This document shows positions 28,515-33,593 of a stretch of DNA of 64,000 bases, piece by piece; the first letter of the stretch is position 1; each line of letters opens with the position of its first letter. Origin of the DNA: Dictyostelium discoideum (lineage: Eukaryota); the NCBI GenBank assembly GCA_000004695.1, contig CM000152.2, forward strand, positions 128,001 through 192,000. Direction: 5' to 3'. A program made the position numbers and the translations under genes. The notes beneath the pieces were generated by a model. The model was not told the origin of the DNA. It did not search any database and saw only the letters and a list, made by a program, of their open reading frames with translations.

Positions 28515-31500
28515 ATGGACAAAGATATTTTATCAAAAAAAATAGAGTCTCTTGGTATAAGAAAAGCAAATTACCAACACATTAAATTAGAATTATTTAA
28601 AATTTTGTCAAAAATAAAAGATGAAAAAATTAAAAAAATAATAAATAAAATATTAATAAATATTAGACCACCAGAAAAAATATTAGATTCAGGAATTCAT
28701 GGAAATCATTTTATTGTTTCAAAAAGCTTAGACCATCCTATTTTTAAAACATTCAGTGATAATTTTAAAAAAATAGATGATTTATATAAGTTATTAGATA
28801 ATTTAACCGATAATTTAACCGATAATCTAAACGATAATTTAACCGATAATAATATTATTAATAATAATAATAATAATAATAATAGTATTAATGACCGATC
28901 TGAAAGTACAAATTATCTATTATTTGAATTTGAAGAAAACGATGGGGATCATTCTAATAATATCACTATTAAAAATATAAAAGATAATAAAAATAATAAT
29001 AAAAATAAAAATAATAATAATAATAATAATAATAATAATAATAATAATAATAATAATAATAATAATAATAATAATAATAATAATAATAATAATAATAATA
29101 ATAATAATAATAATAATAATAATAATAATAATAATAATAATAATAATAATAATAATAATAATATTAATATAAATATTAATAATAATATTAATAATTTATC
29201 AATTGATAAATCACAACTTGAAGAAAGACCAATAGCAGATGGTATTTTTCAAATTCAAGCATTTTTTCATCCATCTATTGATGATAGCAATCATATATAC
29301 GTTGATAATAATGATTTCAAACATGATCAAATTGATAGTAATAATAATAATAATAATAATAATAATAATAATAATAATAATAATAATAATAATAATAATA
29401 ATAATAATAATAATACTAATAATAATAATTATAAAAATGAATTATCTCAAGTTTTAGAGTTAATTAAAGAGTATAAAGATTTACATTCAAAATATAAGGA
29501 AATTTTAATTAAGAAAGTGGAAAATGAAATAAATACTGCATTCTCAGATGTTCCATTAATAATTAGTGAAGATTGTATATTTAAAGAAATACAAATAGAG
29601 ATAGCATATAAAATATCATCAATTGATAGAATAAAAAAAACATCTATTAGAGAAAATGAAGTAGGTTTAAGTAAAGGAGTAGAATTTGATGGTGTTTACT
29701 ATAAAGTTGATAATAATATCTCATGTTTATTGAACCCATCCAAAGAAAATTCAGTTTATCAATTATATGATTCATTATTTCAAGATAAAGGTTTCATATC
29801 ACCAACACAATTATTAGTAATCAATGGTTTAAAAGTAGTTACAGAAGATGGTATACGTAATTCAAGAAAAGAATTTATGTATACTTATCATTTAATAAGA
29901 AATTCACAGATGAACTATTTAAAGAGTCAATCGAAAAAGATTCAATTTTTAAAGAATCGGTGAATAATAATTTAGAGAGAATGAATATTATTATTCAAGG
30001 ATCATTATTTATAAAAGGTGAAACATTACAAAAATATATATTGAATAATTGTAATGATTTAAAATCTGCATACAATAAAATTGATATTAAAAGTTATAGT
30101 GCTCATATATTATCAAGTCTCTTATCGATTCCAACAGATTCTCATGGTGATAATTATATTGTTGAAAAAGACTCTTTTAAAATCGTTGGTTTAGATAATG
30201 ATAAAGTATTTGAATGTCAAGAATTTAGAAAAACTAAAGATGAATATTTCATAGGTATGAGAAATATATTGTTCACATTGGGACCATTAATGAATAAACC
30301 AATAAACCAAGAAATTAAATCACAATTCATTAAACATCAACCAAATTTATTCTTATTAAAATGGTTACAATCATTAAAAGAAAAACAATCTACATATGAA
30401 TTATTCATTTCATCAATAATCGATGTGGGATTACCACCAATGCAAATGGAAAAAGAAAAAGAAATTACTAAAGATAGATTAAATTTACCATTAAAATTTC
30501 ATAAAGGATGGATAACATCAATGTTAAAGAGATTTAAATTAATTTCAAAATTACTTTCAAAAAATTTAAATACAGACATAACACATCAAGAGTTATTCGA
30601 ACATGTGCAACCAAATGGAAGTTCATTTTATAAATCACTATCAAAATTATGTGATCATGATTCAATAAAACAAATACAAACAATTAGAGATTATGATAAA
30701 TATTATGGCTTTCCATGTAATATAAGTTTAAATTTAAATGATTTATTTAAAAATAAAGAAAATGAAATGGTTGATATTATAAAACAAATTGAAGCTACAA
30801 TTGAGATTTTACCAGATACACCAGAGTTAACATTAAGTAAAACAATAGTAGAGTTGATATCAAATTCAGAATATAATGATTTTAATGCTACATTTGTTTT
30901 TCAACCAATTGTTAATTGGCTTGAATTAGTATTTAAAATGAAAAAAAGTGATAAAGGTATAAAACTTCATCAATCATGGAGCGATACTAAAATAATAGTT
31001 TTGAAGAAATTATTCCAAAATGGAGTATCTTTAGAATTAATTAAAGATTTCATTAAAGAAACTTCAATAACTATAGAGGATATAGAATCTATTAGTTCAA
31101 TTTTACATTGTTCAATTATAGCAAATAATTCAAATATTTTAGAACAAATTGAATTATTAATTAGTTTAGGTGTTGATATTGATAGAAAAGAAGGTATTAA
31201 TGATTTAACCCCATTAGATTTAGCAGCAAGAATTAATCAATTTAAAGTTTTCACTAAATTAATTGAATTAGGTGCAGGAAAAGTATTGAATCATTCAGAG
31301 ATTTCAAATTATTATTATTATAAACTTTCTAATGAAGAAAAAGAAAAATTAAAACCCTTTATACCACAATTATTCATAAGAAATCCAAAATTGATTTGGG
31401 AAATATCATTAAATGAAATTTTACCAATTGATAAAAACAGTGATAATGACAAAGACGGTGTGAAAGGAATAGTTAATAATAGATCAATTAAAAAGGATTA

Positions 31501-33593
31501 TTTGGATCAATTGTTTGATAGTAATAATCAACCAATTAAACTACTAAACCAATATGGTACAAGATCTGTAGTTTTAATTGAAAATGAAAATGGATTAGGA
31601 ATTTATTTTAAATTTAAACCACAATTTCCAGGTATTGAATTTGCTATTAAAGAATTTGCAGAGGATTTGTTTGGTTTTTGTACACCATATTCAGAATTAG
31701 TATCAATTAATGGCTTTCCAGTTTTATTAGTTCAAAAAGTGTATGGTAAAACTTTATTTGATGTATTAAATGAAGAATCATCATCATCATCATCATCATC
31801 ACCAAATATTGAAAGAATTGAAAATTCAACTATTGAAAGAATTGAAGATTCAAATATTTCAAAACTAATTATGTTATCAATTTTAACAAATAATGCAGAT
31901 GGTAATTTAGGTAATTTAATAATTTCACAGGATACTTTATTAAATAAATATTATATTTTTTCAATTGATAATGACCAATCATTTGTACCACCAGCATATT
32001 ATAGTAACAAGATAATTTTTAATAAATTTTTATTAAAAATAGAAAATTCTTTATTTTTATTTAATCAAATGTTTAAGCTGGTACATCAAGATGTTATAGA
32101 TTCAATTATTAAATTAGATATTGAAGTTTTTTTAAATAATTGGATTGTAAAATTGGAGCAACACCATAGTATGTCTATGCACTATTCCAAATCAAGTATT
32201 GATCATTCACATTTTGGTCTTGATGGAACAGTAATTGGAGTACCATTTGAAATTGAAACCATTAAACAAATAATAACAAAGCTTACTAGGTTGAAAATAT
32301 GTTTAACAAAAAAGAAAAATATAACTCATTTTGATATATTAAAATTACTTGAACCATTGATTTCTATCAAATATAAACCATTAATCTCTGATAAATCCAT
32401 TTCAATTATAAATAAATTTTTAAAGTTAAGGGAATCTAAAGAAATTGAATATTCAAATTTATTGAAAATATCAACATGTTCTATAAATAGTTCGAAAATT
32501 ATTTTAAAATCTAGATTCATAAAAAATACTTTAAATATTCAAAGTGATTTATTTAATGGTCAATATAGACCAAATCTAATTACATCACAAATATCAAGTA
32601 TTATTAAAGGTTACTCAAATATTAATCAAGTATTAGAAGATATTAAAAATAATAAATCAACTTTAAAATTATCAGATCACCAATTAGAGACATTATTAAA
32701 AGATGAAAATTTTGAAAAAATGGGAGAGAATGAACAAGGTTTAGTATTCTCGTTAATTGAAAAATCATCTTTAAGATATCTTAAATTAAAAGGTAGTTCA
32801 TTAATTAAATTTTCAATTTTTAAACAATTTGATTTAAATTCAATTTCAAAAATCGACTTTGAAAATTGTAATAATTTAAAATCTTTTGGAGATTTAACTA
32901 TTTTTAAACCAATCTTTTTATCTTCACTAGTAGTACTAAAATTTAAAAATTGTAAAATGTTAACATCCATTTTCATAAATGCACCAAATTTAGAAAAACT
33001 TTATGTAAAGAATAGTCCAATCATTGAAAACATTGAAACATTCTCACCAAATTTAAAATCCTTAAATTTAAATAGATCAATAAATAATTTAATAATATTA
33101 GATTCTATAAATAATTATAAATATTTGGTGAATTTAAATATATCAAACATATCAAAATCTATATTAAATTCAAAACTTCACTTTTATTTTAACGAATTAG
33201 AATATTTAACAATTAAAAATAATGAAATTTTAAAAGTTTTTTATTTTATACTTCCAAATGTTAAATCAATTAATTTACAAGGTTGTAAAAATATAACTGA
33301 AATTTATTTTAAAGAAAACGAAACTGAAAATTTAATAGGAATTTCAAATAAATCTATTTCATTCAACCAAGGTTTAGACTACATAATTGAAAAATCATTA
33401 CTTTTTACAGAGTCAAATATAGAGGAGCTAAATCAATATTATTTACATTCAAAAGGTAAGTCATTATATATAATTCAAAAAATTAAAAAAAAAAAAAAAA
33501 TTATTAATATTTAATATTTACTTTTAATTTTTTAAAACAGGTGCAAAGGAGAGATTATTTATGTATTCAATAACCAATGTACCTGAATTTTAA
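28515..33593 (+). CDS. Large multi-domain protein, apparently one gene carrying a -1 frameshift. It has an N-terminal Asn-rich region, ankyrin repeats, a PI3/PI4-kinase-like (type II PI4K-like) domain with degenerate catalytic motifs, and C-terminal leucine-rich repeats.
   Basis: Segment A is 28515..29963 (frame 0, stop TGA 29961-63). Segment B is open in frame 2 from 29861 and runs to 33455, followed by an 85-bp intron (GTAAGT..aaacag) and a last exon 33541..33593 (GAKERLFMYSITNVPEF*). The first ATG in frame B is at 29981 (MNIIIQG); GTG at 29960 is merely where the ORF track starts that ORF. The two frames overlap at 29861-29963 with no intergenic spacer. Segment B contains ankyrin-like NSNILEQIELLISLGVDIDRKEGINDLTPLDLAARINQFKVFTKLIELGAG. 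It also contains the kinase-like core FAIKEFAEDLFGF...LSILTNNADGNLGNLII...YIFSIDNDQSFVP (type II PI4K: IRNTDRGNDNWLI / IDNGLAFP) and LRRs (LKSLNLNRS..LVNLNISN..LEYLTIKNN..VKSINLQGCKNITEI). Confidence 0.6.

Follow-up and report, generated by a model that had tools for sequence, protein, structure and literature searches.

Type II phosphatidylinositol (PI) 4-kinases (PI4KII; PI4K2A/PI4K2B, Protein Data Bank (PDB) entries 4pla, 4hnd and 4wtv) and the actin-fragmin kinase (AFK) of Physarum (PDB 1cja) have the protein-kinase-like fold closest to that of two domains encoded by a gene at positions 28515–33593 of a 64,000-nucleotide stretch of Dictyostelium discoideum AX4 DNA (assembly GCA_000004695.1, contig CM000152.2, 128,001–192,000, forward strand; hereafter the window). 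The window domain shares 12–16% identity with type II PI 4-kinases and, in contrast to them, is tandemly duplicated and embedded in a protein with ankyrin and leucine-rich repeats (LRRs). The protein differs from actin-fragmin kinase in architecture, with no Pfam match to either the AFK sequence signature or Kelch repeats. It resembles the ROCO/LRRK scaffolds in being large and multidomain, with ankyrin repeats, LRRs and kinase domains, but its kinase fold is of the PI4KII/AFK type instead. In AX4 the gene is read as two open reading frames (ORF A and ORF B), and neither matched Roc, Ras, COR or Pkinase (Pfam, E≤1); of the ROCO/LRR-kinase likeness drawn in a preliminary description of this DNA, the LRR and ankyrin modules are borne out, and a Roc plus COR tandem was not found. 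The Dictyostelium kinase pseudogenes (Goldberg et al. 2006, PMC1420674) are a precedent for the split itself: there, as here, a frameshift is hidden in an automated gene model by a short coding-like intron, and the parent family is lineage-expanded. The family described here, by contrast, is not of the eukaryotic protein kinase type and apparently lies outside that kinome catalogue, and an intact orthologous allele persists in a sister lineage. We conclude, with a probability of roughly 80%, that ORF A and ORF B are a single D. discoideum gene broken by a one-base deletion, and thus a recent pseudogene or null allele (Table 1).

As the preliminary description had reported, the two ORFs overlap by 4 nt, frame B stays open for 100 nt 5′ of the overlap (from 29861) and no AT-rich spacer separates them; the junction also has a coding-like composition and no promoter-like region. 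That description had also proposed that a single-base change would fuse the ORFs into one protein of about 1,700 residues. The repaired product in Table 1 comes close to this length, and the lesion lies within the interval 29861–29960 that it had named. A chance origin of a 1,184-codon ORF is impossible in DNA of ~20% G+C, for which we estimate that ~9% of random codons are stops.

To locate the lesion, we used cluster members of the racN and SCAI proteins, reconstructed in spliced form, to reach syntenic loci in four further assemblies, and compared three of these genomes with AX4, from which they diverge by 8–17% over the whole region: ACTFIY (D. cf. discoideum), ACTFIR and ACTFIW. Each is one base longer than AX4 at the same point. 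The sequence there is TCATTTAATAAG in AX4, TCATTCTAAAAAG in ACTFIW and TCATTTTACTAAG in ACTFIY, and the change in AX4 was probably the shortening of a run of four T to three. In ACTFIW the gene is one uninterrupted ORF (locus L005, 12459–17027) plus a last exon, annotated as a 1,538-residue product (L005 12462–17162), and up to the 3′ intron the deletion site is the only difference between AX4 and ACTFIW whose length is not a multiple of three. Across the junction, five paralogues (D. purpureum and D. firmibasis; 31–36% identity) also align with no gap or loss of residues, and the region is therefore coding rather than intronic. The affected position sits in a loop of ~45 residues that domain 1 has and domain 2 lacks (hhalign). 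A position of 29909–29921, obtained by tblastn with distant paralogues, was discarded because the close orthologues put the true site at 29891–29893; a match of 'HLIRNSQ' in frame A arose by chance. Set against an intact orthologue, AX4 thus carries a lesion that disables the gene, and an independent sequence confirms it: the separately deposited, chromosome-level ACTFIT assembly (GCA_054883475.1) is identical to the AX4 gene at 5,079 of 5,079 nt. The homopolymer-associated frameshift first suspected from the AX4 letters is accordingly a 1-nt deletion in a T run.

The AX4 lineage lost one base from this short T run in the domain 1 loop. A ribosome starting at the normal ATG would then translate 23 wrong codons before the TGA that ends ORF A; these last codons (29892–29960) are out-of-frame read-through past the deletion. 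The predicted product is a 482-residue fragment holding just part of the N-lobe of domain 1, and the remaining 1,184 codons would go untranslated. At the other end, the final 19 codons of ORF B, from 33456, are read-through into a 3′ intron. The same intron structure is found in ACTFIW, where the annotated gene end fits a spliced last exon, and the gene boundaries are those of a 1,646-residue gene model in ACTFIT (L010 12321–17399). The end coordinate of the preliminary description, 33593, proved to be the stop codon of this short last exon, beyond a true intron.

Table 1 Features of the gene in the AX4 window (positions are those of the window)
Feature	Position	Strand	Details
Whole gene	28515–33593	+	ATG at 28515, stop TAA 33591–33593; repaired product 1,664 residues
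Exon 1	28515–33455	+	Single-gene model
ORF A	28509/28515–29963	+	As read in AX4: 482 residues plus TGA at 29961–29963
1-nt deletion site in AX4	29891–29893	+	TCATTTAAT; ACTFIY, ACTFIR and ACTFIW each one base longer (pairwise alignments)
ORF B	29960–33514	+	Mechanical reading of 1,184 codons, −1 frame relative to ORF A
Spliceosomal intron	33456–33540	+	85 nt, GTAAGT...ACAG, phase 1, canonical
Last exon	33541–33593	+	53 nt; reads ...G/AKERLFMYSITNVPEF, then stop
Poly-Asn tracts	29010–29162 (51 N), 29340–29414 (25 N)	+	Low-complexity N-terminal region, 29010–29414
Kinase-like domain 1	29598–30688	+	Spans the frameshift; BLASTP and hhalign against domain 2
Domain 1 motifs	PTDSHGDNYIV 30131–30163; GLDND 30188–30202	+	PTDSHGDNYIV is the catalytic-loop equivalent; YYKVDN also present
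Ankyrin repeats	31019–31303	+	ORF B residues ~354–448, between the kinase-like domains
Kinase-like domain 2	31466–32413	+	Lys 31610–31612; D-G-N-L-G-N 31898–31915; IDND 31964–31975
Leucine-rich repeats	32726–33313	+	Six-sequence profile against PDB

The locus is also broken in other lineages. In ACTFIR we found a 4-nt insertion and an 8-nt deletion, together with a nonsense codon and another deletion of 1 nt. ACTFIY combines indels of 5, 11, 8 and 4 nt with several of 1 nt and with six in-frame stops, its 8-nt and 4-nt deletions hitting the domain 2 catalytic loop and IDND motif. At the D. dimigraforme locus there are three frame changes and seven stops. These sequences indicate at least four independent losses of the gene, in AX4 and at least three sister lineages, with ACTFIW the sole genome among those reached to keep it intact. 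Independent breakage in sister lineages with one intact copy marks a dispensable, decaying family member, that is, a polymorphic or unitary pseudogene, and because AX4 shows no second lesion across 1,184 codons of AT-rich sequence, its inactivation is recent. Downstream of the lesion, the ratio of nonsynonymous (dN) to synonymous (dS) divergence between AX4 and ACTFIW is 0.48 (dS 0.093, dN 0.045), and this dN is ~3 times that of two neighbouring genes; with small per-domain counts, this is a sign of weak constraint only. As a separate observation, ACTFIR and ACTFIW (both labelled D. discoideum) and ACTFIY show 81–93% nucleotide identity to AX4 over ~20 kb (window 15700–37900), and dS between AX4 and ACTFIW is 0.04–0.13 in the three genes compared. 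Such divergence is far above that expected for conspecific strains.

Could the two ORFs be joined after all? A 53-nt intron at 29857–29909 (GTAATT...CACAG), if spliced out, would leave AX4 with a full-length protein minus 18 residues of the domain 1 loop. The GT...AG boundaries exist, the segment falls in a poorly conserved loop, and its removal gives an open product of 1,646 residues, the annotated length in ACTFIT. Indeed, 5,079 nt minus 3 × 1,647 leaves 138 nt, or 85 + 53, and from this arithmetic we infer that the ACTFIT gene model bridges the frameshift with this very segment. In intact ACTFIW, however, its counterpart is 54 nt of in-frame coding sequence with no annotated intron, and in every paralogue it aligns to residues. 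Moreover, at 53 nt and 21% G+C, with a weak donor, it lies outside the 60–250 nt and <15% G+C of true Dictyostelium introns (PMC1420674), leaving the GT–AG boundaries as the one intron feature present, whereas the true intron of the same gene is of the canonical GTAAGT type. Gene predictors mask pseudogene lesions with bogus introns, according to the Dictyostelium kinome paper (PMC1420674), and this 'intron' is most likely such an annotation artefact; we regard its splicing as very improbable. Enumerating all GT–AG introns across the junction yielded dozens of open solutions and no discrimination, and a bridging intron of 59 nt was rejected because it left the true 3′ intron out of account; from the coordinates of the gene in ACTFIT the length is 53 nt. 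Joining by programmed −1 ribosomal frameshifting at a U_UUA_AAG heptamer (29918–29924 or 29948–29954) is extremely improbable. Both heptamers stand in the right phase relative to frame A, with the −1 frame open at these points, but the window has 36 copies of TTTAAAG against ~59 expected, no excess over chance, and the predicted RNA fold of the 100 nt downstream is no better than shuffles (z = −1.15). The frame break is, in addition, specific to AX4 and ACTFIT, the same sequence being ordinary in-frame coding in ACTFIY, ACTFIR and ACTFIW, the three further genomes of the D. discoideum complex compared at this site. Slippery heptamers are thus present at the junction with neither a stimulatory structure nor conserved frames, and we found no evidence for recoding at the window locus.

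It is also conceivable that the split yields two separately functional products: an N-terminal protein of 482 residues, plus a C-terminal one whose translation begins at an internal Met, for example at 29981. Both ORFs are long and intact, and ORF B by itself retains the ankyrin repeats, all of domain 2 and the LRRs. We consider this unlikely, as the intergenic AT-rich or promoter-like sequence of a second gene is missing between the ORFs and the first ATG of ORF B falls within domain 1. Every paralogue, the intact orthologue and a Paracaedibacteraceae relative have a single polypeptide instead; the split is lineage-specific, in a locus that is decaying in sister lineages. An error of sequencing or assembly in the reference would be favoured by the error-prone short homopolymers that adjoin the deletion. 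Yet the run is merely T3, and identity of the separately deposited GCA_054883475.1 at the site and over the whole 5,079 nt argues that the frameshift is not a reference error, an explanation that we therefore judge highly improbable. Several points weigh against the reading of ORF A and ORF B as one inactivated gene. Being 100% identical, ACTFIT may share the laboratory lineage of AX4, and so confirms the base call and not the allele frequency. The other assemblies are drafts of uncertain quality, though multi-base indels and nonsense codons are among their lesions. ORF B is perfectly open with dN/dS < 1, and an internal-start product or a rescue mechanism may exist. The case for catalytic competence of the family, finally, consists of conserved residues and a medium-confidence model.

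In the repaired protein, the modules follow the order of the family, which runs from a low-complexity N-terminus through kinase-like domain 1 and a helical linker to the ankyrin repeats, kinase-like domain 2 and, last, the LRRs. The Asn-rich N-terminus noted at the outset is borne out by the two poly-Asn runs, a region that gave no alignment between strains. The single lipid-kinase-like fold of the preliminary description was located as domain 2, but there are two such modules, not one. Domains 1 and 2 are homologous (BLASTP E 4e-7; hhalign probability 98.7%, E 2.6e-16, 262 columns), are both kept in 5/5 paralogues and are tandem duplicates. Ankyrin repeats, also claimed from the start, matched Pfam Ank_2 and Ank_4 under the gathering score (E 6e-4 to 7e-4) and DARPin and consensus-ankyrin entries in PDB (E 6e-11 to 5e-7). 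The LRR region had no Pfam match (hmmscan, E≤1), and the claim of LRRs is upheld by profile matches in PDB to the RPP1 LRR (1.3e-14), DRC6/FBXL13 (5e-6) and RAD7 (1e-4), and also to ANP32 and Roq1. Beyond the LRRs the paralogues differ: two longer ones from D. purpureum and D. firmibasis (P0001 and P0002) continue for a further ~500 residues (residues ~1500–2100) with strong ankyrin repeats at the end, and two others (P0003 and P0004) end in FNIP repeats, so that the C-terminal modules of the family are variable.

Both kinase-like domains have a protein-kinase-like fold, although sequence searches alone did not recognise it. Pfam PI3_PI4_kinase gave no match at E≤1 for ORF A, ORF B (hmmscan) or the five paralogues, neither Pfam nor NCBIfam recognises the kinase-like domain, and sequence and profile searches of PDB found no kinase. 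Hence, of the Pfam families that the preliminary description had put forward for searching, Ank was returned below threshold and PI3_PI4_kinase and LRR not at all. Structure modelling of the central region, which it had likewise suggested, was more informative. An AlphaFold2 model of domain 2 from a six-sequence alignment (mean predicted local distance difference test score (pLDDT) 67.7, predicted template modelling score 0.73) has an N-lobe sheet and αC helix followed by a helical C-lobe. Foldseek with this bilobal kinase fold ranked PI4K type II beta first (E 9.7e-4); the proposed analogy to type II PI 4-kinases thus holds at the level of the fold and not as membership of the Pfam family. 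The domain 1 model (pLDDT 50.7) was too poor for a structure search.

In the domain 2 alignment, K49, E58, D145, N150 and D168 are invariant in six family sequences, and their equivalents in domain 1 are also invariant. The model places K49 in strand β3, E58 in helix αC, D145 and N150 in the loop past helix 128–141, and D168 just past strand 161–166, in line with a β3 Lys, a catalytic-loop Asp followed five residues on by Asn, and the metal-binding Asp in an IDNG motif. The motifs of domain 2 are YFKFKP, NNADGNLGNLII and SIDNDQSF. The preliminary description had compared NNADGNLGNLII...IFSIDNDQSF (31889–31984) with ...IIRNTDRGNDNWLI...AAIDNGLAFP of PI4K2A, a text that we verified against PDB 4hnd, and had read Ala-Asp as apparently in place of Asp-Arg, hence a degenerate catalytic loop and perhaps a pseudokinase scaffold. 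This reading comes from a one-residue register shift: aligned by the D-x4-N spacing, which is kept, D-R-G-N-D-N of PI4K2A corresponds to D-G-N-L-G-N of domain 2, and the motifs give no support to a pseudokinase. Retention of the canonical Lys, Glu, D-x4-N and (I/L)DND makes it probable that intact members of the family are active, ATP-dependent phosphotransferases rather than pseudokinases.

Elsewhere in the window, exact protein matches, which assign the window to AX4 chromosome 3, include the DnaJ protein XP_002649165, DDB_G0278003, fimbrin, racN, SCAI and a profilin-like protein, and from accession numbering alone EAL68178 and EAL68179 would be the two entries between racN and SCAI. Immediately upstream of the broken gene lies a second Rho-family GTPase gene with three exons (27490–28262, + strand), an exact match to AX4 Q1ZXJ6. 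This GTPase has no recognisable P-loop, with VVLVKHLYCIQKGRGTFE where racN has VVLGDVTIGKTS, and the ACTFIT annotation merges its gene with racN into one 381-residue product. The ORF-poor spacer between the broken gene and SCAI has overlapping ORFs of 85 residues (− strand) and 66 residues (+ strand) at 34120–34377, and D. dimigraforme has calls of small genes at the corresponding position (L006 13280–14357). Rfam had no matches over the whole window, this spacer included. On the − strand at 12895–14743, consecutive ORFs of 238, 182 and 175 residues stand in different frames with gaps of 14 and 41 nt, breaks that may be the first frameshift to which the preliminary description alluded, or else short introns.

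The family to which the gene belongs is large and uncurated. A profile search of 1.84 billion representatives (50% identity clusters) found 1,099 proteins at E≤1e-3, 230 of them at E≤1e-30. Most of the 1,099 are 1,000–5,000 residues long and many match twice, consistent with a tandem domain; sampled members add Sel1 repeats, Ulp1/RickCE protease domains, LRR_6 or ankyrin repeats. No relatives were found on viral contigs. A scan of prokaryotic genomes recovered relatives in two metagenome-assembled genomes (MAGs) of amoeba-endosymbiont lineages. One, from Candidatus Paracaedibacteraceae (JAIBEV010000027.1; L008 27–4505), is a 1,492-residue ORF with the full kinase-like/Ank/kinase-like/LRR layout; the other, from Candidatus Amoebophilus sp. 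36-38 (MKUM01000099.1; L009), is open through the whole locus and adds Ulp1/RickCE and Sel1 modules. They share 27–40% identity with the Dictyostelium proteins over ~700–1,100 residues (E 1e-83 to 1e-159), in an alignment that covers the Ank, kinase-like domain 2 and LRR regions. In contrast to the window protein, these endosymbiont multidomain proteins lie on bacterial MAG contigs, with bacterial-like G+C (41% and 35%, respectively), and some have the extra Ulp1/RickCE and Sel1 modules. This distribution suggests inter-domain gene transfer, or possibly mis-binning.

A literature search found no description of the family. On a tentative reading of these sequences, which we think may hold but would not expect to, the family would be an undescribed PI4KII/AFK-like branch with two competent tandem domains, horizontally exchanged between social amoebae and endosymbionts (Amoebophilus, Paracaedibacteraceae), and AX4 would carry one allele of a functional/null polymorphism arising from host–symbiont or self/non-self conflict. 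The locus in itself is ordinary and the family mildly interesting. At the window locus, a single, recently inactivated gene is the proper reading of the two ORFs and of any 'intron' model that joins them. With catalytic residues conserved in six aligned members, the intact paralogues, and not this broken copy, are reasonable candidates for a new lipid or protein kinase activity in amoeba–bacteria biology.

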